Positions 2,361 through 21,107 are shown, numbered from the stretch's first letter. The stretch is 32,000 bases of DNA from Nitrososphaerota archaeon (GCA_002713205.1 PAVW01000011.1:26143-58142); one strand, 5' to 3'. The notes: generated from the letters alone by a model not told the origin. Made by a program: numbers and translations.

Positions 2361-3116
2361 TTGGGAAAAGCACAAAATTCAGTAGAGGCATTAAATAATA
2401 GGATATCTACTCATGCAAATTTTGCTAAATATGAAATAAATGATTGGATAATTCCCATTCTAGACGTTCAGAAACACGATCATGTGTTAGATATTGCATG
2501 TGGAAATGGTAAACAATTAATTCCAATTAGTAAAATAATTGATGATTCAGGTTCAATAACAGGCTTGGATATATCAGAAGAACTGCTAAACGAGGTCAAC
2601 ACATATACAAAGAAAACTAAAAACATCATTCTAAAACAGGGAAAAATGGAAAATATAGACACAGATTTCAAAGATAAGTATTTTGATTTAATTTTCTGTT
2701 GTTTTGGATTATATTATTCTACTAATTATAAGAGAACAATAAAAGACATTCATAATAAACTAAAGAACAATGGAAAATGTTTTGTTTGTGGACCAATAAA
2801 AGGAAACAATTTAGAATTAACTGATATTCATGAGGTGTTTGGAAGACTTCCAAATGAATATGTCATACATAATAATTTCATTGAGACTAAAGCATTACCT
2901 TATTTCAAATCAGTATTCAGTGAAGTCAATATAGAAATTTTTGAAAATCCAATTACATTTCCAAATAAGGAAGCATTATTAAAATATTGGAAATCGTACA
3001 CTTTATTTGAACAGGAAGTACAGAACGAATTTGAAAATGCAATAACAAATATATTCAAAAAAGAGGGAAAGTTTATTACAAAAAAAATTGTGATGGGAAT
3101 AACGGCAAAGAAGTAA
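2361..3116 (+). CDS. class I SAM-dependent methyltransferase
   Basis: 251 aa. SAM-binding motif I VLDIACGNGK followed by an acidic loop GLDISEE. A non-ATG (TTG) start is required because no in-frame ATG precedes motif I. Confidence 0.75.
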   Translation: MGKAQNSVEALNNRISTHANFAKYEINDWIIPILDVQKHDHVLDIACGNGKQLIPISKIIDDSGSITGLDISEELLNEVNTYTKKTKNIILKQGKMENIDTDFKDKYFDLIFCCFGLYYSTNYKRTIKDIHNKLKNNGKCFVCGPIKGNNLELTDIHEVFGRLPNEYVIHNNFIETKALPYFKSVFSEVNIEIFENPITFPNKEALLKYWKSYTLFEQEVQNEFENAITNIFKKEGKFITKKIVMGITAKK

Positions 3117-3118
3117 GA

Positions 3119-3817
3119 ATGACAGTTAGTTATAAAAATCTAGTAGTATTGATTATTGCACCACATCCTGATGATGAAGTATTGGGATGCGGAGGACTGA
3201 TATCAAGAGTAAAAGCAGAAGGAGGCAAAGTGCACGTTCTATGCTTTACTGTTGGGGATATTAAACAATATGGAGGTTATAGCCATACTGAAAAAAGAAT
3301 AAAAGAAATGAACAAAGTGATGAAATATCTAAAAGTAAATTCATTTAATTTAGCATTAGTTGGAGACAAATATCATTTAAAACTAGACAAAGTTCCGCAA
3401 AAAAATTTAATCAATATAATTGAAAAAGGGGAAGTTTCTATATCTACAACAAAACCCAACATGATTTGTATTCCATTTATAGGTTCTACAAATCAGGATC
3501 ATGTAGCAGTGGCAAAAGCAAGTTTTACAGCGTGCAGGCCAGTAAAAGATTCAGAAAAAAACATTGCGCAAATTGTATTATCATATGAACAACCTGAGAC
3601 AAATTGGACAAGAAAAAGATTTCATCCTAATTTCTTTATAGATATAACCAAAAATCTAAAAACTAAGCAAAAAGCATTGTCTTTGTATTCATCACAAATA
3701 AGAAGTAAAAACCATCCAAGAACACCAAGTATAATTGAAAAAATAGCAGAGTTAAGAGGTAGTGAAATAGGTGTCAAATATGCTGAAGCATATGAATGTC
3801 ACAGATTTATTGTATAA
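3119..3817 (+). CDS. PIG-L / LmbE family N-acetyl-sugar deacetylase
   Basis: 232 aa. Diagnostic N-terminal motif IIAPHPDDEVLGCGG and a downstream HxxH-like NQDHVAVA. Starts 2 nt after the preceding stop codon. Confidence 0.8.
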   Translation: MTVSYKNLVVLIIAPHPDDEVLGCGGLISRVKAEGGKVHVLCFTVGDIKQYGGYSHTEKRIKEMNKVMKYLKVNSFNLALVGDKYHLKLDKVPQKNLINIIEKGEVSISTTKPNMICIPFIGSTNQDHVAVAKASFTACRPVKDSEKNIAQIVLSYEQPETNWTRKRFHPNFFIDITKNLKTKQKALSLYSSQIRSKNHPRTPSIIEKIAELRGSEIGVKYAEAYECHRFIV

Positions 3818-3856
3818 TCATGGAATAATTTATTATCGATAGACAAGGAAAATGAA

Positions 3857-4831
3857 ATGAAAGTTTTAGTAACAGGATCATCAGGATTTTACGGTTCACA
3901 TCTCATAGATGCGTTATTACAAGAAAAAAATGTAGAAATAATAGGAGTCGACAACCTTCACCGACTAAAAGATTTTCCTATAGAACCCTTCAATGTTGTG
4001 CAAGATAAAAGTGGACTAAAAGAAAGATTTTCAAATTTAAATATGGATTTTAGAGATCTAACCGCAGAAAAAATTGATGCGTATAATATAGACTGTATAA
4101 TTCATTTAGCATCATTAGTGTCAATTCCAGAATCAATGAATAAACCAATGGAATATTTTGAATTAAATGAAATTGGAACATTCAAATTGTGTCAAGAATT
4201 GTTAAAAACAAAATGTAAACCATTTTTAATATATGCATCTTCCCCAGAAGTTTACGGAAATCCAATTTATACTCCAATGGATATTAATCATCCATGCAGG
4301 CCTCGTAGTGTTTATGCAGCTACAAAATTAGCTGCAGAGAAACATTGTATGGTACTAAATGAATGGTATGATTATCCAGTTGCAATAATTAGGAATTTCA
4401 ACACCTATGGAGAAAATCAAAGTAATACTTACAGAGGATATCCAGCAGTAGTACCAGAATTTATAACCAGAGCAATAAAAAATGAAGAAATACGAATTCA
4501 TGGAAATGGAATGCAGACAAGAGATTTAATGTATGTAAAAGACGCAGTAGGAGCATATGTTAAAGTAATGAATGAAAGGAAAAAATCGCATGGGCAAATA
4601 TTTAATATAGGCACGGGTATTCAAACAGGAATATTAGAACTTGCAAATAAAATTATCAAGATATCAGGATCATCATCTAATATTCGTCATGAAAAAGAAC
4701 GTGCTGCAGATTTAGAACAATTAGAGGCAGATTGTAGTAAAACAGAAAAATTACTTGATTGGAAACCTAAATATTCAATTAACCAAGGACTTGAAATTAC
4801 TATTTCATGGTTTAAAAAATTACTAGAATAA
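3857..4831 (+). CDS. NAD-dependent nucleotide-sugar epimerase/dehydratase (extended SDR)
   Basis: 324 aa. Rossmann motif VTGSSGFYGSHL, SSPEVYG, and the catalytic YxxxK in YAATKLAAE. Confidence 0.85.
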   Translation: MKVLVTGSSGFYGSHLIDALLQEKNVEIIGVDNLHRLKDFPIEPFNVVQDKSGLKERFSNLNMDFRDLTAEKIDAYNIDCIIHLASLVSIPESMNKPMEYFELNEIGTFKLCQELLKTKCKPFLIYASSPEVYGNPIYTPMDINHPCRPRSVYAATKLAAEKHCMVLNEWYDYPVAIIRNFNTYGENQSNTYRGYPAVVPEFITRAIKNEEIRIHGNGMQTRDLMYVKDAVGAYVKVMNERKKSHGQIFNIGTGIQTGILELANKIIKISGSSSNIRHEKERAADLEQLEADCSKTEKLLDWKPKYSINQGLEITISWFKKLLE

Positions 4832-4845
4832 ATATAAATTCAGAG

Positions 4846-5793
4846 ATGAATTTGACAGATATTATAAATAATATCAACAATTACAAAACAATGAACAATA
4901 AACTGAAAAAGAAAATAACAATAATTAATGATGCCGCATGGGTAGGTTATGAAATTGCAGAAGGTCTTAGAGAATTAGATAAAGATGTGCTTTATCTTCC
5001 AAGAAATTTTGCCGGTCCTAATGCAAAATCAAATTTTATATATTCAGTGTATGGAAAAATATTTAGTCCTGTTATTAATGCAATTAAAGCAACGGGAATA
5101 ATTCATGTAAATTATGCGTTGCAAGATGCATTTTGTGTTAGATTATTAGGGAAAAAAATAAATGTGTTACATTGTCATGGAACGGATTTATTTGGATTAT
5201 TAGATGAACAATTTAAAAAAGAAAGTAAAGATTTGACAAGATGGAAAACGATAATAGAAGGCAATATAAAATCTGCACGGACGGTATTAGTATCAACTCC
5301 AGAAATGCTTACATTAGCAAAACAAATAAGAAGAGATGCAGAATATTTACCAAATCCAGTCGATGTAAAAAGGTTTTCGCCTAAAACGATAGAGCAAAAA
5401 GAAGTCAGAGCAATAGGTTTTGATTCATGGTATGAAAAAGTGCCGAAAGAAGTAATTGATTTTCTTGAAAAGAACAATGTAAAAGTAGATGTTTATGATA
5501 GAAGGCCTTTTTCATATCTAGAATTTCAAAAAACATTAACAAAATATCAAATTTACATAGATAGAATCCATACAAAAGGCGTATCATCTTTTAGCAAAGC
5601 ATGTTTAGAAGCAATGTCATGCGGATTAGTCACGATAGATTTTCGACATAAAGAAAATGTCATTGAAAGAGCAACTAATATTTTAAATTACAAAAATCGA
5701 AAAAATGAAGCAAAGAAAAATAGAAAATTTATACTAGAAAAACACGATAGGCTGAAAGTAACTAAAAAATTATTAGAAATATACAACAGGTAG
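4846..5793 (+). CDS. putative GT-B fold glycosyltransferase (GT4-like, divergent)
   Basis: 315 aa. HCHGTD, LPNPVDVKRF and CLEAMSCGLVTI resemble GT4/Glycos_transf_1 motifs, but the match is weak. Confidence 0.5.
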   Translation: MNLTDIINNINNYKTMNNKLKKKITIINDAAWVGYEIAEGLRELDKDVLYLPRNFAGPNAKSNFIYSVYGKIFSPVINAIKATGIIHVNYALQDAFCVRLLGKKINVLHCHGTDLFGLLDEQFKKESKDLTRWKTIIEGNIKSARTVLVSTPEMLTLAKQIRRDAEYLPNPVDVKRFSPKTIEQKEVRAIGFDSWYEKVPKEVIDFLEKNNVKVDVYDRRPFSYLEFQKTLTKYQIYIDRIHTKGVSSFSKACLEAMSCGLVTIDFRHKENVIERATNILNYKNRKNEAKKNRKFILEKHDRLKVTKKLLEIYNR

Positions 5794-5801
5794 AAATAAT
5801 T

Positions 5802-6911
5802 ATGAAAATTGCAATAATACACTATGATTTATCAATGCGAACAGGTGCTCAACGATTAGTTTTAGGTATGGGAAATGCCATGAAAGAAATAGGCCATGAT
5901 ATAGCATATTTTACTTCAATCTATGATGAAAATAAGGCATTTAAGGAATTTGAAAAAGAAAATTTAATATCTTTTGATGGTAAAAGAGATTTTTTTGGAC
6001 GATTTAGAGGATTAACTGCATATCGCGAGAGTAGGAAGATGATTGAAAAATGTAGAAAAGAGTTTAATCCTGATTTGTATATTTTTAGTTCGAATTATTA
6101 TTTAGCAAGCGAATACAATCCATCAATGATTTACTGTCATCATCCAGAACAATTACTTGTGAATAATGGAGACATTGTTAGAAAAATATTGCATGTGCCA
6201 ATAGACAGAGCTGAAAAAAAAGGATTTCAAAAGACAGATAGAATATTATGTAATTCACAATTTACTAGTAATGTAATAAAAAGAACGTTTCAAAGAAGTA
6301 GTACAATATTATTTCCTGGAGTAGATACAGAGAGATTTTCATTTAGCAATATTGAAGAGAATTTTATTTTAACAGTAAACAGAATCATGCCTGGAAAGAA
6401 TTTAGAATTTGCAATAGATATAATAAACAATATAACAAAATCGAGAAAAGACATAAAGCTAATCATTGCAGGGACCAAGCAAATTGGTTTTGAGTGGTAT
6501 ATTCAATCATTAGAAAATAAAATAAGAGAGTTAAAACTTGAGAAATTCATTGAAATAAAAATTGACGTGTCAGATAAAAATTTGATAGAACTCTATAAGA
6601 AATGTATAATTTTCTTATATACGCCAATTGAAGAACATTTTGGAATAGCGCCAATAGAAGCAATGTCCTGTGGAAAACCAGTAATAGCATTTTCAAAAGG
6701 AGGTCCAAAAGAAACTATTCAACACGAAAAAACAGGCTATGTATTAGAAGATAACATTACACTATGGGAAGAGAAAATTATTAATTTATTAGAAGATAAA
6801 GAAAAAAGAACAGATATGGGAATAATGGCAAGAGAAAGAGTTGTAAACAACTTTAGTTGGGACGTATTTACAAAGAAACTAGAAAAATGCCTTCAAGAAC
6901 TATCTAATTAA
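5802..6911 (+). CDS. glycosyltransferase family 4 (GT1-domain)
   Basis: 369 aa. Canonical C-terminal motif EHFGIAPIEAMSCGKPVIAFSKGGPKETI and FPGVDTERF. Confidence 0.85.
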   Translation: MKIAIIHYDLSMRTGAQRLVLGMGNAMKEIGHDIAYFTSIYDENKAFKEFEKENLISFDGKRDFFGRFRGLTAYRESRKMIEKCRKEFNPDLYIFSSNYYLASEYNPSMIYCHHPEQLLVNNGDIVRKILHVPIDRAEKKGFQKTDRILCNSQFTSNVIKRTFQRSSTILFPGVDTERFSFSNIEENFILTVNRIMPGKNLEFAIDIINNITKSRKDIKLIIAGTKQIGFEWYIQSLENKIRELKLEKFIEIKIDVSDKNLIELYKKCIIFLYTPIEEHFGIAPIEAMSCGKPVIAFSKGGPKETIQHEKTGYVLEDNITLWEEKIINLLEDKEKRTDMGIMARERVVNNFSWDVFTKKLEKCLQELSN

Positions 6912-8871
6912 TTAAATTAGAATCAATTTGTAACGAACTATTTGGGAAGACAACAGTTTCAGGATTGTTAGGATGATGTTTACGTAATTCATCAATAACA
7001 GAATTCCATGTATTAAACACCCTAACATCATCTGGATAATGATCATGGATATAACGCTGATTAACAGTAGGGCAATAGAATATTAGGTGTCGATCTTGCA
7101 ATGGTCCACCAAATGTTCCATGTTTGTCTCGTCTTATATGATGAAGCATACCCGTGCCAACAAGCCCATGTTCACCAATGCCTTCTGATGACGCAGTGAC
7201 TACAACTATACTGCCGCCTCTGCGAACAATTTCTTTATCAGAATCTCTAGAACCCCATATATTCAGGGAATTTAATGCCAATAAGAACCATGTATCTCGA
7301 GGGAATGCATTAAAAATTCCAACATCTACATTATATGAAACTTTTGTAGCATAGATTTTCGATGCTTCTTTAGATGCACTAAGAAATACATTTTTAGGAT
7401 TGCCAGAGAAAACACCTGCGGTTTTTCCGAGAGAATTGGAAATAGTATTAACTATGAAATCCAATCCTGCCATTTTAGAAGCTTCTTCTATATCATCACG
7501 TCTACTGTTATCTTCAACTTGTCCAATTTTACCTTGAAGAGATTTATTAACAGGTCTGTGATTTACGTCAATTGACTCAATGCCCGCTAGTCCAGGCATT
7601 ACAATTTTTCCACCACCACTAAATCCTGCATAAGGATGAGGCATTAATGTGCCAATACCAATTTTGAAATCAGCTTGAAGAAACAAATTATCAATATACA
7701 CAGGAGTTCCACTAGAGGTAGTTCCAAGAAATTTATTATTCTGATATGCGTTATGACAATATATCTTATAATTATCGACTATATTTTTACCAAGTTTTTT
7801 ACAAAGTTCGGTAAATGTAAGAGAACGATGAGTCCCTGTACTGACAATAAAGTAGATATCGCCATCATTAATACCTGCATTATGTAATTCTTGAAGAATG
7901 AACGGAATAATACGAAAAGCTTCTGTAGGTTTAGTAAGATCGTCAACTGTAATACATATTGATTTGCAATTTTTTGTTTGAATTGACAGTTTATCAGTAT
8001 TTAATGGATTTAATATAGATTGTTGAATATAATTGTCTGGAATTTCTTGTGCGTCATTCATTTGGGAAACATTCACATTCCATTCTGGAGGAAAAGTAAG
8101 ACTAAGTAAATCATTCCCATACCAAGATTTCCAAGGTATGGAAATAGAATTAATTTCTTTAACATGATTTACTGTAGAATCCGGCATAAGTAATTCGGCT
8201 AATTTAAGATCAGCATATTCATCAATATTGACAGAACGTTCAGAAGGCATCACATGTGCAATGCTTTTACTACCTTTAATTGACTTTGAATTTACAATTA
8301 CATCACGTTTTGTAGCATAAATTGCACCATTTCTAATATAAACAGGAGGAAGTGTTTGTCTGGGAGTATTTTCTATTCCTTCATCAGTATAATCAAGCAA
8401 TTGTCCATCGATTATAGTTTTCATTCGGTGGGGATGTATTCCACCAACATCAACCACACTAATAACTGAATCAGCATTAGTATCAATTAATTTATTTATA
8501 CAATCATCAATATCCTGACAAGTACGTAAAGGAGTAGTAGGTTGAAGCATTACAATTATGTCATATGTTGATTTCTCTTGTTTTTCAATTTCTTTTACAG
8601 CATGAATCAATACATCAATTGCCAATGAATCATCTTGGCTTAATGGTTCAGGGCGTATAAATGGAACAGAAGCACCATATAATTTAGATACGTCAATAAT
8701 TTCTTGATCTTCTGAAGAAACCACTACATTTGACAGTAATGTAGATTTCAATCCTTCAGAAATAGTATATGAGATCAGAGGTCGATTAAGAATTGGAACT
8801 AAATTTTTTCTCTTAATAGTTTTTGAACCGCCTCGAGCAGGAATTATACCTAAAACTCTCTTCTGTGTCAT
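6904..8871 (-). CDS. fusion protein: CMP-sugar-acid (acylneuraminate/KDO-type) cytidylyltransferase domain + LarA/DUF2088-like nickel-pincer racemase/epimerase domain
   Basis: 655 aa. The N-terminus GIIPARGGSKTIKRKN...QPTTPLR is typical of NeuA/KdsB-type cytidylyltransferases. The C-terminal ~415 aa carry VDDLTKP, STGTHR, MPHPYAGFSGGGK and IDVNHR, with LarA-like spacing. Its start codon overlaps the stop of the upstream neuB-like gene by 4 nt. Confidence 0.8.
   Translation of the reverse strand: MTQKRVLGIIPARGGSKTIKRKNLVPILNRPLISYTISEGLKSTLLSNVVVSSEDQEIIDVSKLYGASVPFIRPEPLSQDDSLAIDVLIHAVKEIEKQEKSTYDIIVMLQPTTPLRTCQDIDDCINKLIDTNADSVISVVDVGGIHPHRMKTIIDGQLLDYTDEGIENTPRQTLPPVYIRNGAIYATKRDVIVNSKSIKGSKSIAHVMPSERSVNIDEYADLKLAELLMPDSTVNHVKEINSISIPWKSWYGNDLLSLTFPPEWNVNVSQMNDAQEIPDNYIQQSILNPLNTDKLSIQTKNCKSICITVDDLTKPTEAFRIIPFILQELHNAGINDGDIYFIVSTGTHRSLTFTELCKKLGKNIVDNYKIYCHNAYQNNKFLGTTSSGTPVYIDNLFLQADFKIGIGTLMPHPYAGFSGGGKIVMPGLAGIESIDVNHRPVNKSLQGKIGQVEDNSRRDDIEEASKMAGLDFIVNTISNSLGKTAGVFSGNPKNVFLSASKEASKIYATKVSYNVDVGIFNAFPRDTWFLLALNSLNIWGSRDSDKEIVRRGGSIVVVTASSEGIGEHGLVGTGMLHHIRRDKHGTFGGPLQDRHLIFYCPTVNQRYIHDHYPDDVRVFNTWNSVIDELRKHHPNNPETVVFPNSSLQIDSNLIN
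6907..8154 (-). other. LarA-like (DUF2088) domain of the fusion (aa ~240-655)
   Basis: H348, H412, K422 (codon AAA at 7606-7608, minus strand) and H438 reproduce the His108/His174/Lys184/His200 spacing of lactate racemase, at a constant offset of ~238-240 residues. Confidence 0.65.
8188..8871 (-). other. cytidylyltransferase domain of the fusion (aa 1 to ~228)
   Basis: The domain boundary is estimated from where NeuA-like similarity ends (…ADLKLAELLMP). It is approximate. Confidence 0.6.
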
Positions 8872-9818
8872 AAATTAACTTCTTCCCAATTATATATAGT
8901 TCTTCCATTTATTATTGATGCAAATCTACCTCGATAATAATCTCGATTTAAGAGTTCTTCATCGCTAAGTGTATGAGATTCAGAACCAAGCATTATTTCA
9001 TAATTATGAATTTGTTTAACGTGTTCATAAAGTTCATCATTTTTCATTGTAGAATATTCAACAAGATTTTTAAGTTTTTCAGGATTGATGGAAACAGGAC
9101 CGTCTTTGGTCTGCGAAGCATCAAGTATAGTGAAATGTCGTTCTATAATATTTGCACCCTTCCACAATGCAACAATATCAGCGTCAAGACCAGTAAGATC
9201 AGATTGAGTATGATCACTAAAACCAACTTGATTAGTAAAATGTCTTAGATAATTAATACGATTAAGATTTAATTTGTCAATAGGAGTTGGATATATAGTT
9301 ACACAATGTAAAAAGAAGAAATTTTGATCATTTAATATGTCAGCTGTTGTTTCAATTTCATGATCGTGAGTAGCACCAGTTGAAACATATATTTTTTCAA
9401 ATTTATTCTTTAGATCCTTAATTAAGGGAAAGCTTGCACAATCATAACTAGCAATTTTTATTTCTTTAAATCCTAAATCAAGAATTAATTTTAATCTACT
9501 TCGATTAAAAATTGTAGTTAAAGGTATAATGCCTGCTGCATTACATTCATCAATAAACTGAGAATGAACATCAACACTTAGATCAAGTTTTTGTAATCTT
9601 GCAAACTCTGGAGAATATGGACGTGTTATAGAAGTTACAACACCGCTATTATCAGTCACTCCATCTTCAAACCTTTCACGAAAAGTTAAATCTGCAGAGT
9701 ATATTGTTTGAATTTTTGCATGAGTTGCACCACAATCTGCAGCACTCCATATCATTTCTTTCAATAAGTCTATATTTCCGTTATGATTTTGGCATAATTC
9801 AGCAATGATTTTGGCCAA
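8868..9818 (-). CDS. NeuB-family sugar-acid synthase (N-acetylneuraminate / nonulosonate synthase-like), C-terminal SAF domain apparently missing or degenerate
   Basis: 316 aa. N-terminal signature IAELCQNHNGNIDLLKEMIWSAADCGATHAKIQT and a later SDHT motif. A TTG start is required to include the signature. Only ~25 aa follow the point where a ~60-aa SAF domain is expected. Confidence 0.75.
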   Translation of the reverse strand: MAKIIAELCQNHNGNIDLLKEMIWSAADCGATHAKIQTIYSADLTFRERFEDGVTDNSGVVTSITRPYSPEFARLQKLDLSVDVHSQFIDECNAAGIIPLTTIFNRSRLKLILDLGFKEIKIASYDCASFPLIKDLKNKFEKIYVSTGATHDHEIETTADILNDQNFFFLHCVTIYPTPIDKLNLNRINYLRHFTNQVGFSDHTQSDLTGLDADIVALWKGANIIERHFTILDASQTKDGPVSINPEKLKNLVEYSTMKNDELYEHVKQIHNYEIMLGSESHTLSDEELLNRDYYRGRFASIINGRTIYNWEEVNL

Positions 9819-9842
9819 TATAATCTAGAATTATATTGCTAA

Positions 9843-9849
9843 AATATAA
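9843..9849. promoter_or_regulatory. candidate shared TATA box centred in a 55-bp divergent spacer
   Basis: AATATAA lies 25 nt from the neuB-like start (9818, minus strand) and 25 nt from the TIM-barrel start (9874, plus strand). It forms an inverted repeat with TTATATT at 9831-9837. Confidence 0.4.
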
Positions 9850-9873
9850 GCCTGCAAATGATATATTTAGCAT

Positions 9874-10764
9874 ATGATTGGTACTTCAACATCTTTCTAT
9901 GGTTATGGTGATAAATCAATAGAAATTAAAATTGAAAAATTGATTAATATTTTTTCTGAATGCGGGATAACTCCATATATCCAAATAGGAGCAGGAAAAT
10001 CGAATATGGAATATAATAAATTAATCAAAACTCTCAATAGATTTAGAAAAGAATCTGGAGTAATATTCACAATTCATCAAAGTATTTGGTTGCCATCTGA
10101 TGATTTTTATATTAATATTGCTAGTTCTGATGAAAAAATAAGAGATGCCAGTATGAAATGTATAAAAAATAACATAGATTTTGCTAAAGATATAGAGGCA
10201 AAAAATGTATCATTTCATGGAGGCTATGCAACAAAAATATTAACGCAATTAAAAGAATTTGCACCGTTAACAGCACATGCCCAAGTTAGTTATGAAGAAG
10301 CGTACAATAATTCAAATGAATCATTAAAAGAATTAAAAGACTATGCGAAAAATGACATTCAATTAAGTATTGAGAATTTCAATTATAGACCTGAAAGAAG
10401 ATATATGTTTTCACGTGTTAATGATTTCAAGAATCTCCCAACAGGAATTGGAATAATATTGAACGTAGGACATTTATATTACACAGAAAAGAGGATAAAA
10501 GACAATAATTATATAAAAAAAATGATCGATGTATTGAAAGACAGGGTCTATGAAATGCATCTAAATGACAATGATGGTACAGAGGATCTTCACATGTTAA
10601 TTGGAGATGGAAACATACCAATAAAAGAGATAATAAAACATGTGTCCCAAGATAAAGAGATGCCTCATCTCATTATCGAGGCGCATAAAACTCGTCATAA
10701 ATATTCAGATAATGATCTGAAAAACAACATAATAAAATTAAAAAATATTGTCAAAGATATTTAA
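9874..10764 (+). CDS. xylose-isomerase-like TIM-barrel protein (sugar phosphate isomerase/epimerase family)
   Basis: 296 aa. Family-typical metal and active-site strands: VSFHGGY, LSIENFN, LNVGHLY, EMHLNDNDG...H. Confidence 0.65.
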   Translation: MIGTSTSFYGYGDKSIEIKIEKLINIFSECGITPYIQIGAGKSNMEYNKLIKTLNRFRKESGVIFTIHQSIWLPSDDFYINIASSDEKIRDASMKCIKNNIDFAKDIEAKNVSFHGGYATKILTQLKEFAPLTAHAQVSYEEAYNNSNESLKELKDYAKNDIQLSIENFNYRPERRYMFSRVNDFKNLPTGIGIILNVGHLYYTEKRIKDNNYIKKMIDVLKDRVYEMHLNDNDGTEDLHMLIGDGNIPIKEIIKHVSQDKEMPHLIIEAHKTRHKYSDNDLKNNIIKLKNIVKDI

Positions 10765-12483
10765 TCATATAGTTTCATATGTGATATGATCAATTTTTTG
10801 AATCATTTTTTTACCAAAAATACCCCAACCGTCAAAAAATAAAGATGGTTTATTAGTTTTAGATAGAAGATGATAAATATCAAAATTTGAATAGGATACA
10901 TGATTATTCATAATCAATATACAATCAGCATCTTTGAAACCGGTTTCAAGATCAACTGGAATTACATTAAATTGTAACAAATCATTTTGATTCAAGACTG
11001 GATCATATCCAAATATATTCTTGGTGAGCTGACTAAGATTATTTGTAACGTCAAGAGTAGATGATTGTCTAGTATCAGAAGTTTCAGGATTTCCTTTAAA
11101 GGCAAAACCAATAACAAATATTTTCATTTGAGATAAATCCTTACCAGAAATTTTGGAGAAACGTTCAATTTTTGAAATTATATAACTTGACATATTTTCG
11201 TTGATATAACGTGCTGTTTCTGTAAGTTTTGGAACATATCCTTTTTTCTTGGAGCTAGATATTAAGAGATAGGGATCTTTTTTTAAACACACACCACCAA
11301 CACCTGGACTAGGTTTAGGAATACGATTACGGGGATAACCTTCATTAGCAGCTTGGATTATTTTTGATGTATCGAGATCATATTTATCAGCAATTTGAGC
11401 AATTTGATTAGAATAAGCAAAAGTAAGATCACGAAAAGTATTATCCATTAATTTAATCAATTCCGCTTCTTCTAGATGTTCAACATTTACAATGGTATGA
11501 GTAAGTTTTTTGAATATACTAGTTGCTAAATCAGAACTAAAGGAATCAAGGCCTGCAACAATCTGCGGGAGTTCTCTAATTTCCTTAAGCGCTTGTCCAG
11601 CAACAGTACGCTCAGGAGCACAAGCTAAATTGAAATCTTGTCCAGGGGATAAACCAGATATATTTTTCAATATAGGCATGACAATATTACGCGTTGTCCC
11701 AATAGGAACAGTAGATCGAACTATTACAAGATCATTTTTAGATATATTTTTTGCTATGTATTCAGTGGCTTTTTCTAAATATTGAGTAATAGGTTCATTA
11801 TTATCATCTATTGGAGTTTGAACACACAATATATGAATGTCCGCAGATACCGATTCAGAATTAGATTGAATAATTAAATTTTTTCCAAGATGGAATTTAA
11901 GTAATGAATCCAATCCAACTTCATGTATATGTGGCAAACCGTCATTTAATTTTTCTATAATGTCTTTATCGGAATCGATTCCAATGACCTTAAAACCTAC
12001 ATTAGCTAAAGAAACAGCTAATGTTAGTCCAACATATCCAAGACCAATAACTGAGATTGATTTCAGGTTATTTTTATTAATTACGTCCGAATAATCGATA
12101 ATATCAATAACTTGATTTTTATTATCAAGAATTAAAATATTTTTAATATTAGTTTTATGGGTTTTATTTTTATACAGTTCAGTGAGTTTTTTATTCAACA
12201 TAACACTTTTTTCCTGAGATGATAAATTATTGTTTAGAGTAATAGGATTAGTATTCATTATTGAATTAATTTTACCATCGAGATTAGAACCGTGTAGTAA
12301 TGCACGTCTTATATCACCATCAGTAATTACACCCAACAAGGAATTAGAATCATCTACAACAATAGCAATCCCAGATGGTAAATTATAATGAGGTGCTTTA
12401 TTTATGAGTTCAAGAGCTTTTGCAATAGTATAATCACGGTTTACAAAAAGTCTTTCAATATCTATCAATACACATACACTCAA
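10765..12483 (-). CDS. CBS-pair domain fused to a UDP-glucose/GDP-mannose-family nucleotide-sugar 6-dehydrogenase
   Basis: 572 aa. A CBS pair lies at aa ~12-134 (VITDGDIRRAL...). It is followed by the Rossmann motif ISVIGLGYVGLTLAVSLA and the catalytic Cys motif GVGGVCLKKD. TTG start. Confidence 0.8.
   Translation of the reverse strand: MSVCVLIDIERLFVNRDYTIAKALELINKAPHYNLPSGIAIVVDDSNSLLGVITDGDIRRALLHGSNLDGKINSIMNTNPITLNNNLSSQEKSVMLNKKLTELYKNKTHKTNIKNILILDNKNQVIDIIDYSDVINKNNLKSISVIGLGYVGLTLAVSLANVGFKVIGIDSDKDIIEKLNDGLPHIHEVGLDSLLKFHLGKNLIIQSNSESVSADIHILCVQTPIDDNNEPITQYLEKATEYIAKNISKNDLVIVRSTVPIGTTRNIVMPILKNISGLSPGQDFNLACAPERTVAGQALKEIRELPQIVAGLDSFSSDLATSIFKKLTHTIVNVEHLEEAELIKLMDNTFRDLTFAYSNQIAQIADKYDLDTSKIIQAANEGYPRNRIPKPSPGVGGVCLKKDPYLLISSSKKKGYVPKLTETARYINENMSSYIISKIERFSKISGKDLSQMKIFVIGFAFKGNPETSDTRQSSTLDVTNNLSQLTKNIFGYDPVLNQNDLLQFNVIPVDLETGFKDADCILIMNNHVSYSNFDIYHLLSKTNKPSLFFDGWGIFGKKMIQKIDHITYETI
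12082..12450 (-). other. CBS-pair regulatory module of the dehydrogenase (aa ~12-134)
   Basis: Two CBS-like repeats are read from the translation. The boundaries are approximate. Confidence 0.55.
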
Positions 12484-12484
12484 A

Positions 12485-13954
12485 TTATCTATTATAATCT
12501 ATTTTCTCATTAACAAAATCAACTATATATTTTAGCAGGCGTTCAGAAGATTGTCCATCAATTTTATAGCATTGAGATTCTACAATTCGAGCGCGTCCAT
12601 CGAAATCTAAACCTGGGTTGTCAAGATAATCATTAATATTAGTTAATAATTCTTTAGACGATCGAGCAATTTTAACGCCATTAGAATTCAATAAATGCAT
12701 ATAATGAGAATATTGAAAATGTCTTTTAACAGACTTGAAAGAATTAATATCTTGGTCAGTATCAAATGCAATATTAATCACAGGTGTGTCAAAGATACAC
12801 GATTCAATAGTTATAGTAGAAGCAATATTAATCATAACATCCGAATGAAAAAGAGTATTACTTAGAAGTCCATAATCTTCTATATCAGATTTCCAGTGAT
12901 ATCCAGAATCTATAAATTCATTAGATGATTTGCCAGGAATTTGAAGAAATACATCAGGTTTTTCTATAACATTCTGGAAATCAGAAGTACTACGACGTGG
13001 ATGAACACGTAATAACAACTGACACGGCTTATGTAATTTATTTTCTTCAATAGCAGTCTGGATTATTTCTACAATATTTGGTTCAATATCAGATAACTGT
13101 TTAGTTCCTGTCGCATAGACAATAATATTTTTATCAGGATTACCACCAAATGATTGAATGAATTTTTTTCTATCTCGAATCAATGAATTATCATGATGTA
13201 AATCAAATTGAGGAACACCACAAATTTTAACTTGTGATGATTTATAATTCAGAAATTCTATTGCTTCATTTTGCATTATTTTATTCCAAACTATTAATTG
13301 ATCAAACTTAACTGGAACTTCCCATTTTGACGTTAAATTATCCCAACTAGGAACATATGCAATCATCGGAATATTCATTTTTTTACCACGACGAACGACA
13401 GGATATGTATAAAACGAAAAAGGATATGTGACAAAAATAACTTGCGGATTATATGTATCAAAGATTTCTTTATAATTATTATCCAAAAACAGAGTCGAAT
13501 CAATCCATGCAAATAATGAATTAATAATATTACTTTTTGATAACGATTTGCCAATGAATTTTCTGAAAAGCGATAAAACGGGATGTTGATTATTAAATTG
13601 AGAAATTTTTAATTTTAATGTTTCAGAGTGATTTTTATCGTCGTCAGCGAAAACATAATTGCGTAGTAAACCAAATGCGATTTCAAATCGACTTCTTTGA
13701 TATTTTATCAGAGGTCGAACAATTATGTTAGGGTCTGATGAATTAATCATATTATCCTCGGCAAGAATTACAATTCGAAATCCAAAATTAGATATTGATT
13801 TGAGAATATCATCATTTATAATAGATTTCCAACCAATTCCATAAGGTAAAACTATCAAAATAGTATTATGTTTAGATTCGTCTTTCATATTCATAGTGCA
13901 TCGAAATAAATATTTAATAGTATAATTTGAAAAATAACTCAGGAAAAAATTCAT
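12485..13954 (-). CDS. unassigned GT-B-like protein (TagF/CDP-glycerol-phosphotransferase-like or capsule-type transferase)
   Basis: 489 aa. YVPSWDNLTSKW, LLLRVHPRRS and DVMINIASTITIESCIFDTPVINIAF loosely resemble the TagF-family motifs YAPTWR, HP and D..ITDYSS. The true start may be Met21 or Met23 (13894 or 13888). Confidence 0.4.
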   Translation of the reverse strand: MNFFLSYFSNYTIKYLFRCTMNMKDESKHNTILIVLPYGIGWKSIINDDILKSISNFGFRIVILAEDNMINSSDPNIIVRPLIKYQRSRFEIAFGLLRNYVFADDDKNHSETLKLKISQFNNQHPVLSLFRKFIGKSLSKSNIINSLFAWIDSTLFLDNNYKEIFDTYNPQVIFVTYPFSFYTYPVVRRGKKMNIPMIAYVPSWDNLTSKWEVPVKFDQLIVWNKIMQNEAIEFLNYKSSQVKICGVPQFDLHHDNSLIRDRKKFIQSFGGNPDKNIIVYATGTKQLSDIEPNIVEIIQTAIEENKLHKPCQLLLRVHPRRSTSDFQNVIEKPDVFLQIPGKSSNEFIDSGYHWKSDIEDYGLLSNTLFHSDVMINIASTITIESCIFDTPVINIAFDTDQDINSFKSVKRHFQYSHYMHLLNSNGVKIARSSKELLTNINDYLDNPGLDFDGRARIVESQCYKIDGQSSERLLKYIVDFVNEKIDYNR

Positions 13955-14042
13955 AAGAATTAATTAATAATAATATAAATACACATATTTTCAAGAATGA
14001 AATTATTCTAAACCTTAAGTAAAATGTATCGATAGATACTTT

Positions 14043-15392
14043 GTGAAAACAGAAGAAATAGAAGATCTTCCAAAAGACATCAGAACAGGGAAAAAAATCA
14101 TATCAGTGTATGGGATCGGATTTGTAGGAACTGCAATAACATCAGTGTGGCTTAGAGCAGGCGCAACAGTAATAGCAGTAGATAAAAATAATAAAATTGT
14201 AAATTCAATAAATGATAAAAAGATAGCAAATACAGAACCAAAAGCTAAAGAAGCATTCATAGAAGCAGTAAATAATAAAAAATTGTTTGGTACCAGAAAT
14301 ATTAAATTAGCGGCAAAAAAATCACAAATAAAAATAGTATCAGTTCCGGTAGGTATCAAAAATCATATTGCAGATTTAAGTAATGTGTATTCAGTAATAG
14401 ACGATATTACAATTAATCTAAATAGAAACGATATAATCATAATGACTCCAACAGTTCCAATAGGAACATCAAATCAATTGATAAAAAGAATGGAAAGTAA
14501 AACAAAAATGAAGGTTAATGAAGATTTTTTTTATATTTATTCACCAGAACGTATAGCAATAGGTCAAGCAATTGCAGATATTGAAAATAACTATCCAGCA
14601 ATTATATCAGGTGTTGGTAAAAAAAGTTTAAAAATTGCTAAAAAAATTTTTGGAATGATATCTAGTAAAAATCCCATAGTTATGACATCGACAAAAGCTG
14701 CCGAAGCAGAAAAATTAATAGAGGGACTTTATAGAGATGTGAATATTGCACTGGTAAATCAAATAGCAATATTATGTGAAAAAGAAGGAATTGATATTTG
14801 GGAAATTAGAAATGCTGCAAATTCACAACCATTTAGTAATCTACATAAAGCAGGAATTGGAGTAGGAGGATATTGCATTCCAATTTATCCACATTTATTA
14901 TTACAAACTGCAAAAAATAGAGGAATAAATCTAAATTTAGCCTCAATAAGTAGAGAAATCAACGAAGCAATGCCTGCACATTGTGTAAATAGAATACTTA
15001 AAGAATTAAAACAAACGAACAAAAAGAAAAAAGCAGCTATTTTAGGACTTGCATTTCGTGGAGATATTCCAGATAAAAGATTGTCACCAACTTATGATCT
15101 AGTTAATGAGTTGCTAGCAAATGATATTAAAGTAACCGTGCATGATCCATTTTTTGATAATGATTCATTACTTCCAAAGTCAGTAAAAGTTACTAAAAAT
15201 TTAAAAAAAGCAATTAGAAATGTAGATATCATAATAGTAGCAACAAACCATAATCAATATAACAAGCTGAACGATGAATTTGTTGTAAAAAATTCGAAGG
15301 CAAAAACAATTGTATTCGATGGAAGAGGCATATTAAATAGAAAAAATTTTACAAAGATAAAATTAATCACTATAGGTCAAAAAAATGATTAA
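14043..15392 (+). CDS. nucleotide-sugar 6-dehydrogenase (UDP-ManNAc/UDP-GlcNAc dehydrogenase-like)
   Basis: 449 aa with a GTG start. Rossmann motif ISVYGIGFVGTAITSVW, SPERIAIGQA, and the catalytic Cys in GIGVGGYCIPIYP. Confidence 0.85.
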   Translation: MKTEEIEDLPKDIRTGKKIISVYGIGFVGTAITSVWLRAGATVIAVDKNNKIVNSINDKKIANTEPKAKEAFIEAVNNKKLFGTRNIKLAAKKSQIKIVSVPVGIKNHIADLSNVYSVIDDITINLNRNDIIIMTPTVPIGTSNQLIKRMESKTKMKVNEDFFYIYSPERIAIGQAIADIENNYPAIISGVGKKSLKIAKKIFGMISSKNPIVMTSTKAAEAEKLIEGLYRDVNIALVNQIAILCEKEGIDIWEIRNAANSQPFSNLHKAGIGVGGYCIPIYPHLLLQTAKNRGINLNLASISREINEAMPAHCVNRILKELKQTNKKKKAAILGLAFRGDIPDKRLSPTYDLVNELLANDIKVTVHDPFFDNDSLLPKSVKVTKNLKKAIRNVDIIIVATNHNQYNKLNDEFVVKNSKAKTIVFDGRGILNRKNFTKIKLITIGQKND

Positions 15393-16078
15393 TGAAATTT
15401 TTTGAATTCTTTATTTGCTTCGTCAATATCTTTATGATTATCAATAGAACGCCATTTGTTATCTGAATATTTAATTGAAAACAATTGATTATTTGATGCA
15501 AGTTTAGGAAATACATCAGACTCCAGACTTCCAGATTCTGGAAGAAAATTGAAAATTTGAGATGAAATGCAATAAATTCCTGCGTTAATCCAACAGTCTC
15601 TTAATATTGGTTTTTCAGAAAATGTTTTAATTAAATTATGATCGTCTATTTCAACAATTCCAAATGGGCTTTGTAAAGGTACAACTGCCATAGTTGTGAT
15701 AATTGGCGTAATAGTTTGATGTATTAATTCATCTGGAACAATATCAGTCATAATATCACCATTAATTGTCAAAAAATTTTTTTCATCCTGAAGACTCTTC
15801 TGTGCATTTCGTAATGCGCCAGCAGTTCCAAGTGGTTCTTCCTCAATAGAATAATCAATTTTTACTCCAAATTTACTGCCATCTCCAATGTAATCCATAA
15901 TGGATTCTTGTCTATAACCTGTACAAAGTACAATTTCTTGAATTCCACAGGATTTAAGCCATAATATTTGCCATTCAATAATAGGAGAACCTAAAATGTT
16001 CACCATGGGTTTAGGTTTATCATCAGTTAATGGTCTTAATCTCTTCCCTTTTCCTCCTGCTAGAATAACTGATTTCAT
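15389..16078 (-). CDS. sugar-1-phosphate nucleotidyltransferase (NDP-sugar pyrophosphorylase)
   Basis: 229 aa. N-terminal signature MKSVILAGGKGKRLRPLTDDKPKPMV. Confidence 0.85.
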   Translation of the reverse strand: MKSVILAGGKGKRLRPLTDDKPKPMVNILGSPIIEWQILWLKSCGIQEIVLCTGYRQESIMDYIGDGSKFGVKIDYSIEEEPLGTAGALRNAQKSLQDEKNFLTINGDIMTDIVPDELIHQTITPIITTMAVVPLQSPFGIVEIDDHNLIKTFSEKPILRDCWINAGIYCISSQIFNFLPESGSLESDVFPKLASNNQLFSIKYSDNKWRSIDNHKDIDEANKEFKKFH

Positions 16079-16159: not shown

Positions 16160-16711
16160 ATGTTCGATATAGACGATATAGCCAGATTAAGAAAACAATT
16201 GGGTTTAACGCAGGCAGAGTTATCAGAATTATCTGGAATAAATCAATCATTAATTAATAGACTTGAATCAAAACAAATTGAACCGTCATATTCCAAAGTC
16301 AAAATATTAATTGAAACGCTCCAAAAACAAGAAAGGAGAAAATCAAGAACGTGTGGAGATATAGCATCAAAATCAGTATATAAAATTCAATCAAAATCTA
16401 CACTAAAAGAAGCTGCACGAATAATTCAGAAAAAAAATGTTTCGCAATTACCTGTTTTTGACGGAGAAGAAGTAATAGGAAGTTTATCAGAAAAAACAAT
16501 TCTACGTGTTCTTTCTGAGTCAGGTTCATCAGAAGAAGCTTTTAAAAAAATAATCGAAAATGTCATGGAGTCATCATTTCCAACAGTAGACAAAAATACA
16601 CCCATAGAATTATTATATCAAATATTAGAATTCTTTGACGCAGTTATTGTTATGAATAAAGCAAAAATCATAGGAATAATAACTAGAAGTGATTTATTTA
16701 AATTAAAATAA
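16160..16711 (+). CDS. XRE-type HTH + CBS-pair putative transcriptional regulator
   Basis: 183 aa. The HTH is LRKQLGLTQAELSELSGINQSLINRLE. It is followed by two CBS-like repeats (VSQLPVFDGEEVIGSLSE; AVIVMNKAKIIGIITRSD). Confidence 0.75.
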   Translation: MFDIDDIARLRKQLGLTQAELSELSGINQSLINRLESKQIEPSYSKVKILIETLQKQERRKSRTCGDIASKSVYKIQSKSTLKEAARIIQKKNVSQLPVFDGEEVIGSLSEKTILRVLSESGSSEEAFKKIIENVMESSFPTVDKNTPIELLYQILEFFDAVIVMNKAKIIGIITRSDLFKLK

Positions 16712-18724: not shown

Positions 18725-20173
18725 TTAATCTAGTCTTTTTCTATCAGAAGCATTAGACACAGTAGGAACGGGTGTTGTGGGCGACGGAGAAGGACTAGCG
18801 GCTTTAATCGTATCAGCTTTAGGGTTATAGGATCGATAAACATGAGCCAATATGGCAAAGACAATAAAAATACATCCTGTTTCAAAAAGTGCAAGAGCCC
18901 AATAGCCACTTTGATATGCCATTAAAGCCATACCATTGAGTAATACTTCAAAGGCAACTAATGAAATAATAACAATTGACGTCCAAGTAGTATTAAGAAT
19001 TATTGGTCGAGGTTTCGAGAAAGTTCTTTTAGGACTTGCAAAGGTAGAACGCGCTTTTAAGAATCCATACACTAACACAAAGCTAAATACAACTCCAATT
19101 AACATAATACTATACATAGGAATAGGTTCAATAAACAACCTTTGAGTTAGAGTTTTCGATACATCAGGATCAACATAAAATCCCCAAACAGTTGTAACAA
19201 AAATTTGACTAATACTTGCAATGCCTATCGCAGTAAAGAAAGGCCTATCTTTCCAACTAATTTTTCTACTATGATCAATAAATGGAACAAATAGGAACAT
19301 TACAATTAATAATGCAGGTAAAAGACCTCCAGTAATAAATTTATCAAATCCAGTACGAATGAAAGCATATAACCCAGTGAGATACCATTCAGGAACAGTT
19401 ATACCAGGCGGATGACTAGGGTCAAATTTCACTCCCATTTCGACAGGGAATATCCCACCAGTTATAAAAATTAATCCAGTTAGAGCAGACCACATAGGAA
19501 GATCAAATACTACGAATCTTGGAAAGTGTACAAACATCAATATTCCCATAACGATTGGGATTATAAACACGTGTAGAGCATAAAGTCGTAGAAGAAAATC
19601 AGAGAATCCTTGTCCCCATATTAACGTAGCTAATTGAGGACCTATAATAGGGCTAAAAACAGTTAACGATACACCAATGCTTATTGCTAATTCAGCACGA
19701 TCATTAAAGAGAAGATTATAACCAGTAAATGCTTCCAATATAGTTATTACACCAAGAATTACTCCAGTAACCCAAATCATTTCATTTTTTATTTTATACC
19801 TACCACTGAAATATTGATAATACAAATGTAAGACTGCCATAAAGACCATCGCATTAGATGCATGATAATGGAGATTTCTAATTGCAAAACCATATGGGAT
19901 TTCTTCATCAATAAATGCAACACTATCCCATGCACCTTCAATACCAGGGACATAAAATAGCATCAAGAATGCACCAGTCAATCCGAGTAATAAGAATAAA
20001 GCAAAAGTCAACATGCCACTGTACCCCATGGGACTGAGATATTTTTTAGGAAGAGTGAATCTCAGACCTAAAAAGACAGTGCGTTCAAGACGATTTACGG
20101 TATAATCCCAAAACTTTAGAATAAGATTTTTTTTCTTAGACGTAGCTGCCAATTCCAACCTTCCCTTCTTCAT
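18725..20173 (-). CDS. cytochrome b (fused b6-like N-terminal domain + subunit-IV-like domain + extra C-terminal TM helices) of a complex III analogue
   Basis: 482 aa. Heme-ligand His pairs occur in NLHYHASNAMVFMAVLH and LHVFIIPIVMGILMFVH. Qo-site PEWY motif in VPEWYLTG. About 12 hydrophobic helices. Pro/Ser/Thr-rich tail SPSPSPTTPVPT. Confidence 0.85.
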   Translation of the reverse strand: MKKGRLELAATSKKKNLILKFWDYTVNRLERTVFLGLRFTLPKKYLSPMGYSGMLTFALFLLLGLTGAFLMLFYVPGIEGAWDSVAFIDEEIPYGFAIRNLHYHASNAMVFMAVLHLYYQYFSGRYKIKNEMIWVTGVILGVITILEAFTGYNLLFNDRAELAISIGVSLTVFSPIIGPQLATLIWGQGFSDFLLRLYALHVFIIPIVMGILMFVHFPRFVVFDLPMWSALTGLIFITGGIFPVEMGVKFDPSHPPGITVPEWYLTGLYAFIRTGFDKFITGGLLPALLIVMFLFVPFIDHSRKISWKDRPFFTAIGIASISQIFVTTVWGFYVDPDVSKTLTQRLFIEPIPMYSIMLIGVVFSFVLVYGFLKARSTFASPKRTFSKPRPIILNTTWTSIVIISLVAFEVLLNGMALMAYQSGYWALALFETGCIFIVFAILAHVYRSYNPKADTIKAASPSPSPTTPVPTVSNASDRKRLD

Positions 20174-20202
20174 CTAAAGAATTATAGCACATCTCTGTTA
20201 CT

Positions 20203-20982: not shown

Positions 20983-20984
20983 AC

Positions 20985-21004
20985 ATAGTCAACCCTATAG
21001 TCAA
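20985..21004. repeat. direct repeat ATAGTCAA-N4-ATAGTCAA in the Rieske/cupredoxin divergent control region
   Basis: Exact 8-mers at 20985-20992 and 20997-21004, 12-nt period, starting 3 nt upstream of the Rieske TTG start. Confidence 0.5.
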
Positions 21005-21075
21005 TCGAACATTCTTGTGACAACGAATATATATATCTATTTTCTTCAATTCCAAAAATGGGTTTAAAATGCGAG

Positions 21076-21083
21076 ATTTATAA
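21076..21083 (+). promoter_or_regulatory. candidate TATA box for the cupredoxin gene
   Basis: ATTTATAA lies 25-32 nt upstream of the TTG start at 21108 and is preceded by the purine-rich, BRE-like GCGAG. Confidence 0.35.
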
Positions 21084-21107
21084 GCATCTTTACTTTGAAT
21101 TTAATTA

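Follow-up and report, generated by a model that had tools for sequence, protein, structure and literature searches.

The pathways described for N-acetylneuraminic (Neu5Ac), legionaminic (Leg) and pseudaminic (Pse) acids (NeuC-NeuB-NeuA, LegB-C-H-G-I-F and PseB-C-H-G-I-F, respectively) are among the closest counterparts of the gene module analyzed here, with which they share the phosphoenolpyruvate (PEP) residues of a NeuB-family synthase, NeuA-type activation with cytidine monophosphate (CMP) and a dedicated transferase. In the bacterial routes known for such nonulosonic acids (NulO), the starting compounds are amino- or deoxy-sugars, and epimers arise through pairs of NAD-dependent enzymes. 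The module lies in a 32,000-nt stretch of DNA (hereafter the window) from a Nitrososphaerota archaeon (GCA_002713205.1, PAVW01000011.1:26143-58142), where twelve genes occupy positions 2361-16078, and its content suggests entry from a uronate and use of the nickel-pincer cofactor. The pathway proper comprises five core genes (6904-13954) lying between two older glycan modules. Tentatively, and with somewhat less than even confidence, we propose that these five genes make and transfer a noncanonical ulosonic acid, most likely a 9-carboxy nonulosonic (nonulosaric) acid that is epimerized at carbon C8 by a nickel-pincer LarA enzyme.

Extent and conservation of the gene module

Twelve open reading frames (ORFs) tile 2361-16078 in six strand blocks (five genes on the plus strand, two on minus, one on plus, two on minus, one on plus and one on minus) between lysK (720-2309) and an HTH-CBS gene (16160-16711), an arrangement that an earlier note on this DNA had described correctly. 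Because the intergenic gaps span only -8 to 88 bp, a missed gene in the interval is ruled out. Domains were called by Pfam and NCBIfam profile searches, with family membership judged by the NCBIfam cut-offs, and these searches returned the domain types that the note had listed (methyltransferase, PIG-L, short-chain dehydrogenase/reductase (SDR), GT4, cytidylyltransferase::LarA, NeuB, TIM barrel, CBS-dehydrogenase, a PF04464 protein, a second dehydrogenase and a nucleotidyltransferase). No aminotransferase, acetyltransferase or 2-epimerase is present among the twelve genes of the interval.

Gene order and strand of all twelve genes are identical in six congeners with spanning contigs (56-80% amino acid identity; a seventh congener is partly covered), so the arrangement is not a product of chance. 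The comparison of gene neighborhoods that had been suggested to tell a conserved cluster from a variable island thus came out for a conserved block, and the island was rejected on the full synteny among congeners and on a GC content of the interval that resembles its flanks. On the other hand, the reading of the twelve genes as a single pathway had to be given up. One family member (G012) is without NeuB, the TIM barrel, the CBS-dehydrogenase and LarA, and retains seven genes, namely the methyltransferase-PIG-L-SDR-GT-GT4 run and the second dehydrogenase (DH2) with the nucleotidyltransferase (NTP). In another relative (G008) the core is divided between two places, with all five genes still present. 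The limits of the five-gene pathway are drawn from these two genomes, since the first keeps the flanking genes without the core and the second keeps all five core genes though unlinked. Precisely the same five genes, co-oriented and adjoining a flippase and AglB, are found on an unrelated archaeal contig (L046). Within the family, the core NeuB is present in 14 of 15 genomes (13 of 14 relatives) and the NeuA::LarA fusion in 13 of 15. Among congeners the LarA domain, at 76% identity, is one of the best-conserved parts of the module (vs 56-68% for the dehydrogenase, TIM barrel and glycosyltransferase).

Additional sugar genes accompany the module at two loci. In G008 (L028:10991-13673) an HddA-like kinase, a GmhA-like isomerase, a GmhB-like phosphatase and a nucleotidyltransferase, all of heptose type, are inserted directly after the fusion, and SIS, HAD and nucleotidyltransferase genes resembling them lie near the module at a further locus (L134:15815-18407).

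A divergent synthase and its changing partners

The core synthase (8868-9818, minus strand; PF03102, 169 bits) is a divergent NeuB-family protein of 316 aa without a SAF domain. It scores 165 bits against TIGR03569 (NeuB; cut-off 399.65) and 139 against PseI (cut-off 340), and belongs to a SAF-less subfamily of its own, a placement made with HMM cut-offs and the homologues gathered here. The PEP and metal residues (K35, Q37, K121, S124, H203, E226 and H228) are invariant in 24 homologues. Arginines R47, R66, R74, R292, R296 and R298, in the beta2-alpha2 loop and the C-terminal arm, are conserved in the subfamily, and we infer that their role is to bind an anionic group on the distal end of the aldose. 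The subfamily comprises dozens of 50%-identity clusters from archaea, bacteria and large phages; its members carry database labels such as "legionaminate synthase" or "general stress protein", and the module provides a substrate hypothesis for them. The core NeuB was not found in 400 other genomes sampled from the phylum, 400 genomes of a bacterial phylum yielded no close NeuB and one distant homologue, searches of plasmid and phage GenBank entries gave no match at the thresholds used, and no cultured organism emerged from the cluster look-ups.

The earlier note had argued for a 2-keto-3-deoxy sugar acid made outside the Neu5Ac, Leg and Pse routes, and here it has held up. In three relatives (G001, G004 and G008, 91-96% complete) the core NeuB is the only NeuB, and they have no PF02350 (epimerase) protein over the cut-off; NeuC/WecB was not detectable in relatives of this completeness. 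Members of the Leg and Pse pathways (LegB, LegC, acetyltransferase, LegG; PseI, PseF, PseB, PseC) were not found above cut-off or linked in the module: the PseB score of the locus is 31 vs a cut-off of 408, and the SDR scores 180 vs 475 for LegB. The enzymes that the note had counted as missing are indeed absent from the interval but not from the assembly (G000), which contains two NeuC over the cut-off, four more NeuB-like genes and further NeuA and DegT genes on contigs C2 and C8, with another DegT on contig C18; most of the relatives searched lack the NeuC genes. Taken at face value, such genes would let neuC/legBC-like functions of contigs C2 and C8 supply, in trans, an ordinary synthesis of Neu5Ac or Leg, with LarA as a bystander. 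We consider this very improbable, as these two NulO-type clusters carry their own NeuB/NeuA and are not found in most congeners with an intact core, the DNA of contig C8 is closer to Nitrosopumilaceae-type genomes than to congeners, and the LarA domain is among the best-conserved parts of the module. The same affinity of contig C8 suggests that the two clusters may be islands or mis-binned; both contigs are mild compositional outliers, and a tetranucleotide test for mis-binning was only suggestive. Besides NeuC and canonical NeuB, the clusters (L013 and L014) include formyltransferases, a carbamoyltransferase and aminotransferases.

Adjoining the synthase gene is a gene (6904-8871, minus strand; PF02348 and PF09861) for a fusion protein, with a NeuA-type cytidylyltransferase at aa 1-230 and a LarA-family nickel-pincer domain at aa 236-655. 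Its AlphaFold model has a pLDDT of 93.6, and the LarA part superimposes on LarA 9EIA with a TM-score of 0.84; the NeuA part is closest to the CMP-Neu5Ac synthetase 6IFD and scores 151 against PseF (cut-off 206). Residues D311, H348, H412, K422 and H438 of the LarA domain, among them the two catalytic His and the cofactor Lys and His, are invariant in 81 sequences. The genes larC, larB and larE, all over cut-off, are adjacent on another contig (C13:24383-27198; L016-L018), and the core LarA is the only intact LarA of the assembly; a 372-aa degenerate LarA-like protein (C18:40021-41139) reaches 16.6 bits against a broad LarA profile.

LarA and D-2-hydroxyacid dehydrogenase, unrelated families that act on 2-hydroxy acids, alternate in one slot beside this NeuB subfamily. 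At L134 the transferase, CBS-dehydrogenase, TIM barrel, NeuB and NeuA genes are followed by a 2-hydroxyacid dehydrogenase in the place of LarA, and no LarA is present. Another relative (G014, 83% complete) has orthologous NeuB (57%) and NeuA (59%) as unfused proteins; LarA and the TIM barrel were not found in it, a hydrolyzing NeuC (TIGR03568, 355 vs a cut-off of 236) occupies the TIM-barrel position, and a gene for a D-2-hydroxyacid dehydrogenase neighbors the transferase gene across a contig join inferred from the two halves of that gene at the ends of contigs C119 and C73, which have no exact overlap. Between NeuC and the transferase, G014 also encodes a 279-aa protein (L033:8052-8891) like an NDP-sugar dehydrogenase without its UDP-binding domain. 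A more distant NeuB (G538) is found with NeuC, NeuA and a 2-hydroxyacid dehydrogenase of the same kind, and in 14 of 18 viral NeuB-homologue loci (several of them near-duplicates) a D-2-hydroxyacid dehydrogenase is within ~1.5 kb of NeuB. The partner enzyme keeps the Arg/Glu/His triad, and LarA-bearing genomes tested with it gave 2-hydroxyacid dehydrogenase matches at housekeeping level only (31-37%). A search for longer forms returned NeuB fused to a 2-hydroxyacid dehydrogenase (P0445) and to the N-terminal half of the CBS-dehydrogenase (P0446; 39% to the core enzyme vs 24% to DH2).

The viral loci (L136-L153, IMG/VR contigs, NeuB near position 10000) are on large low-GC phage contigs where a subfamily member (33-39%) is beside the D-2-hydroxyacid dehydrogenase; radical SAM, class I/II aminotransferase, nucleotidyltransferase and HAD genes are also present, upstream of apparent structural genes. 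The region is probably a phage glycosylation locus, and the presence of such genes in large phages is a hint of glycosylation by phages.

Of the other three core genes, two follow the synthase closely. The CBS-fused NDP-sugar 6-dehydrogenase (10765-12483, minus strand; TIGR03026, 365 bits), of UDP-N-acetylhexosamine (UDP-HexNAc) type and proposed to form the uronate, has the archaeal UDP-N-acetylmannosamine (ManNAc) dehydrogenase 4R16 as its closest solved structure; its orthologue is present in 13 of 15 family genomes, was not found in G012 and G014, and stands beside the same NeuB subfamily at L046, L133 and L134. The GT-B protein encoded at 12485-13954 (minus strand; PF04464, E 7e-10), whose true start is probably about 20 codons in, had been called TagF-like; the PF04464 match stands, but its best NCBIfam match is the BFO_1060 NulO-transferase domain, below the cut-off (49.9 bits vs 200), and it is a probable CMP-ulosonate transferase. 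It travels with the module at L046, L133 and L134 and in the family genomes. Both genes thus track the NeuB subfamily across archaea and a bacterial locus, and G008 keeps both although they are unlinked.

The fifth gene (9874-10764, plus strand) encodes an AP-endonuclease-2 TIM barrel that we propose to be an NDP-sugar hydrolase, though it may be an isomerase. Residues H68, H115, E167, H200, H229, D238, H240 and E269 are invariant and N197 occupies an Asp site; by our alignments the protein retains eight of nine endonuclease-IV-type ligands. Profile searches match MJ1311 and endonuclease IV, and Foldseek ranks MJ1311 first, then ketose 3-epimerases and endonuclease IV, which does not separate hydrolase from epimerase. 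The earlier label of "TIM-barrel isomerase" is accordingly sound for the fold, while the metal ligands are of endonuclease-IV type and those of an isomerase are not proven. A TIM-SAF fusion at L047/L048 was tried as a counterpart and rejected, as it does not align with the core TIM barrel (19%). The exchange of TIM barrel and NeuC suggests that the TIM barrel releases the nucleotide, and NeuC in the TIM slot of G014 argues for an unphosphorylated aldose.

This exchange also bears on a sugar-phosphate route (like that of ketodeoxynonulosonic acid (Kdn) 9-phosphate or NANS), in which the arginines would bind a 6-phosphate, the TIM barrel would be a 9-phosphatase, and LarA or the dehydrogenase would supply a small D-2-hydroxy acid (glycerate, lactate) as an acyl or ether substituent. 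Such a route would dispense with aminotransferase, acetyltransferase and epimerase. In its favor, the position of Glu134 is occupied in the core NeuB by Asp, a feature shared with synthases of archaea and eukaryotes (PMC8208679), the TIM ligands for several metals could be those of a phosphoesterase, glycerate and lactate are racemized by homologues of LarA (PMC11770544), and class I/II aminotransferase and HAD genes occur at the viral loci. We nevertheless find it unlikely: the product of NeuC, which replaces the TIM barrel, is an unphosphorylated sugar, and no kinase is in view, the module lacks an acyl-activating or acyl-transfer gene, the LarA-NeuA fusion better suits a shared substrate, and the residues following the catalytic His are P, Y and not the F, F of lactate racemase.

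The proposed pathway and its rivals

In the pathway that we favor, the CBS-dehydrogenase would form the uronate by oxidizing an NDP-hexose or NDP-HexNAc at C6, the TIM barrel would hydrolyze the nucleotide off (the task of NeuC in relatives), the divergent NeuB would condense PEP with the free uronate, whose distal carboxylate would be held by the extra arginines of the enzyme instead of by a SAF domain, and the NeuA domain would attach CMP. Carbon C8, whose OH is next to the carboxylate, would then be a 2-hydroxy acid, which the LarA domain would invert by nickel-pincer hydride transfer with cofactor provided by larBCE. Finally, the BFO_1060-like transferase would place the sugar on a surface glycan, probably an AglB-dependent N-glycan (AglB of the assembly is on contig C14). 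The substituent at carbon C5 of the product may be OH or NHAc. Condensation of PEP with a hexuronate, yielding a C9 carboxylate and a 2-hydroxy-acid center at C8, would be the simplest link between the observations, because 2-hydroxy-acid families alternate in the slot and a uronate-forming dehydrogenase tracks the synthase. Viewed from the carboxyl, C5 of a D-hexuronate is an L-type center, so that a racemase and a D-specific dehydrogenase would both lead to the 8-epimer.

A number of observations count against this proposal. A lone D-specific dehydrogenase would need an 8-oxo precursor, and the independent loci are few, which is a weakness. The partner dehydrogenases are not resolved as one clade (75% support for the cellular ones, with the phage ones apart, in a poorly resolved tree), no NDP-sugar dehydrogenase is adjacent at the viral loci or in G538, and a locus that is bacterial by gene content (L133) has the CBS-dehydrogenase, NeuB and NeuA with neither LarA nor a 2-hydroxyacid dehydrogenase within 10 kb. 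The P0445 fusion is represented by one sequence, P0446 has a cluster member in which it is split, and a third fusion joins NeuB to a DegT aminotransferase (P0447). LarC is found in 34 of 41 genomes of the order, most of them without the core LarA, so larBCE is not specific to this enzyme, and further nickel-pincer enzymes may await discovery in Nitrososphaerales. A literature search, incomplete in its coverage, found no paper with the word "nonulosaric".

One of the main difficulties concerns the carboxylate ligands of LarA. LarA_Ip binds its carboxylate with R73, Q295 and K298 (PMC11851776), where the LarA domain has K314, L531 and N534; of the five ligands with which LarA_Ip holds the carboxylate, two (Q295 and K298) are thus absent. 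Among cytidylyltransferase-linked LarA homologues the Lys is kept in 0 of 23 and the Gln is missing from 20 of 23, while both are kept in 18 of 32 unlinked homologues, related sequences not being independent in either count. Loss of these ligands in the linked clade would suit a NulO with a neutral tail (Neu5Ac- or Kdn-like). In that case LarA would be a C7/C8 epimerase of CMP-NulO that does with nickel, and as one protein, what ElaA/ElaC or EpaA/EpaB do, and the dehydrogenases would make separate uronic acids of the same glycan. G014, which pairs the NeuB subfamily with NeuC, agrees with this reading, and a nickel-pincer enzyme outside the LarA family, NphT, works on neutral sugars (PMC13524815). 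The range of LarA partners also agrees with it and counts against our proposal: members of the same LarA clade stand beside other synthases, with no sugar dehydrogenase, at L043, L044, L047 and L049-L052, and LarA-linked cytidylyltransferases, tried as a single clade, fell into two, a fused and an adjacent type. We nonetheless hold a neutral product to be doubtful, as it leaves unexplained both the replacement by, and fusion with, a D-2-hydroxyacid dehydrogenase and the tight tracking of NeuB by the CBS-dehydrogenase, and relatives without NeuC/WecB revealed no source of ManNAc.

A different chain length or an amino-substituted product has also to be considered, that is, a shorter or other ulosonic or ulosaric acid (C7-C8, like 3-deoxy-lyxo-heptulosaric acid, Dha) or one aminated by the family-wide DegT of contig C18. 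The occurrence of the same LarA clade with a gene like that of DAHP (3-deoxy-arabino-heptulosonate 7-phosphate) synthase at L044, L050 and L051, the P0447 fusion, the presence of that DegT in 15 of 15 family genomes and a chain length left unconstrained by the absence of a SAF domain are all compatible with it. We judge it improbable: a partner dehydrogenase of UDP-HexNAc type and the NeuC substitution in G014 point to a six-carbon aldose, and the DegT is present in G012 too, which lacks the module. Its neighbors are of housekeeping kind (GT2, HMG-CoA synthase), it is unlinked to the synthase, and it scores 263 vs a cut-off of 424 for PseC and 247 vs 420 for LegC.

As to the LarA loci themselves, at three bacterial ones (L044:2693-9239, L050:4003-9248 and L051:2737-9305) a clade member follows a cytidylyltransferase, together with DAHP-synthase-like and shikimate-dehydrogenase-like genes and, at L044 and L051, a Gfo/Idh/MocA oxidoreductase; they possibly encode a CMP-heptulosonate pathway. 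KdsA was rejected as the partner, since the PF00793 gene of L044 scores as DAHP synthase. At L043:7117-9251 and L052:7269-9284 cytidylyltransferase and LarA form pairs that lack an ulosonate synthase within 8 kb; L043 also has split transketolase and E1-dehydrogenase genes nearby. At L047:7924-17278 a NeuA::LarA fusion is accompanied by a Kdn/NANS-like NeuB that bears SAF and by a second set of NeuB, NeuC and NeuA. The module offers a concrete substrate hypothesis for this uncharacterized clade.

Flanking genes and host

Module A, which flanks the core and is all on the plus strand, encodes a class I SAM methyltransferase (2361-3116; Pfam), a PIG-L family deacetylase (3119-3817; Pfam), an extended SDR epimerase/dehydratase (3857-4831; below the LegB, GalE and PseB cut-offs), a divergent GT-B/GT4-like protein (4846-5793) and a GT4 glycosyltransferase (5802-6911; PF00534, E 1e-35). 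All five are kept in G012, and the last two in G014 as well. Of the two GT4-like transferases announced by the earlier note, the second is thus plainly one, and the first is GT4-like by profile comparison only (hhalign against a GT4 set, 91%, E 1e-6), with no Pfam or NCBIfam match. Module B consists of DH2, a second NDP-sugar 6-dehydrogenase (14043-15392, plus strand; TIGR03026, 335 bits), and NTP, a sugar-1-phosphate nucleotidylyltransferase (15389-16078, minus strand; PF00483, E 8e-41). The two occur together in G012, G014 and G031, and are therefore independent of the core NeuB; DNA-level matches to NTP are also found in the ammonia oxidizers G022 and G028. A separate glycan locus of the assembly (C17:15973-29643) has a flippase, SDRs, a UDP-glucose-dehydrogenase-like gene and a nucleotidyltransferase, and a similar block adjoins a split transferase gene in G012 (L178). 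Farther along, the window contains cytochrome b, Rieske and cupredoxin genes (18725-21569), an endonuclease-dU-like gene (21566-22141), an N6/N4 DNA methylase gene (28940-29872) and a gene for a membrane protein (30018-30716, plus strand) with a borderline DsbD_2 match in Pfam only.

The assembly amounts to 919 kb at 76% completeness, genomes of the genus being 0.8-1.0 Mb, and has ~13 ORFs for pyrroloquinoline quinone (PQQ) dehydrogenases. The gene amoA was found in none of the 15 family genomes, five of which are at least 90% complete, and is present in 7 other genomes of the order; the ammonia-oxidizing host assumed earlier is thus rejected. Heterotrophic marine Thaumarchaea (HMT/HMN) are described as having genomes of ~0.8-1.0 Mb, no amoA and many PQQ dehydrogenases (PMC7300363), a profile that the host traits fit. 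As to the note's remark that envelope glycans of ammonia-oxidizing archaea are essentially uncharacterized, an N-glycan structure of one of them, Ns. viennensis, has been described (PMC12153357). As a streamlined genome of <1 Mb keeps the module at high identity across the family, the sugar probably matters for the cell surface of these globally distributed dark-ocean archaea.

Comparison with known systems

Working as the NulO pathways would, the module appears to fail membership of Neu, Leg and Pse alike: its NeuB lacks SAF and is far under the NeuB and PseI cut-offs, and NeuC, aminotransferase and acetyltransferase give way to a 6-dehydrogenase, a TIM barrel and LarA. The Kdn pathway consists of Kdn-9-phosphate synthase, HAD phosphatase and CMP-Kdn synthetase, the last represented by structure 9T4Z. 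Like the module it needs no aminotransferase, acetyltransferase or 2-epimerase; unlike it, it uses a HAD phosphatase, which the module lacks (generic HADs are encoded elsewhere in the genome), although the TIM barrel could stand in for it. The core NeuB shares only 23% identity with the Kdn/NANS-like NeuB of L047 and also lacks the motifs seen in that protein.

The Tannerella forsythia NulO transferases Tanf_01245/BFO_1060 (PMC5420450) are the best NCBIfam match of the core transferase and of its L046, L133 and L134 homologues, but a remote one (50-85 bits vs a cut-off of 200). The AP-endonuclease-2 superfamily (endonuclease IV, CbiR, MJ1311, ketose 3-epimerases; PMC7733943) shares with the core TIM barrel the fold and the His/Asp/Glu metal ligands, but identity to solved members is 13-21% and one Asp ligand is Asn. 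To the LarA superfamily (LarA_Lp 5HUQ, LarA_Ip 9EIA, Mar2 6D6Z, GntE; PMC7583248, PMC11770544, PMC11851776) the core domain is tied by its fold (TM 0.84), catalytic His, cofactor Lys/His and larBCE; it differs in falling below all tested subfamily cut-offs, in the R to K, Q to L and K to N changes at the carboxylate ligands, and in being fused to NeuA in a glycan locus. Neither cytidylyltransferase nor neuraminate turned up in a text search of PMC11770544.

Overall, it is conceivable, though we would not call it likely, that this NeuB subfamily, widespread and undescribed, converts a uronic acid into a nine-carbon dicarboxylic sugar whose C8 is set either by the nickel-pincer epimerase joined to the CMP-synthetase or, alternatively, by the D-2-hydroxyacid dehydrogenase; we found no report of such a NulO, and a literature search of incomplete coverage gave no paper that connects a 2-hydroxyacid dehydrogenase with NulO synthesis. 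If true, the nickel-pincer cofactor would here have its first role in the biosynthesis of glycans, and this as part of the core genome of an abundant archaeal family of the deep ocean. A precedent comes from Acinetobacter baumannii, where EpaA, a cytidylyltransferase fused to an aldo-keto reductase, is needed for 8-epimerization of pseudaminic acid (PMC12053666). EpaA/EpaB and likewise ElaA/B/C (PMC13656337) couple a cytidylyltransferase to a hydride-transfer enzyme that resets a side-chain stereocenter, by fusion in EpaA, and would by analogy provide a model for such an architecture in C8 epimerization; they employ two NAD(P)-dependent oxidoreductases on 9-deoxy sugars, whereas the module has one proposed nickel-pincer domain.

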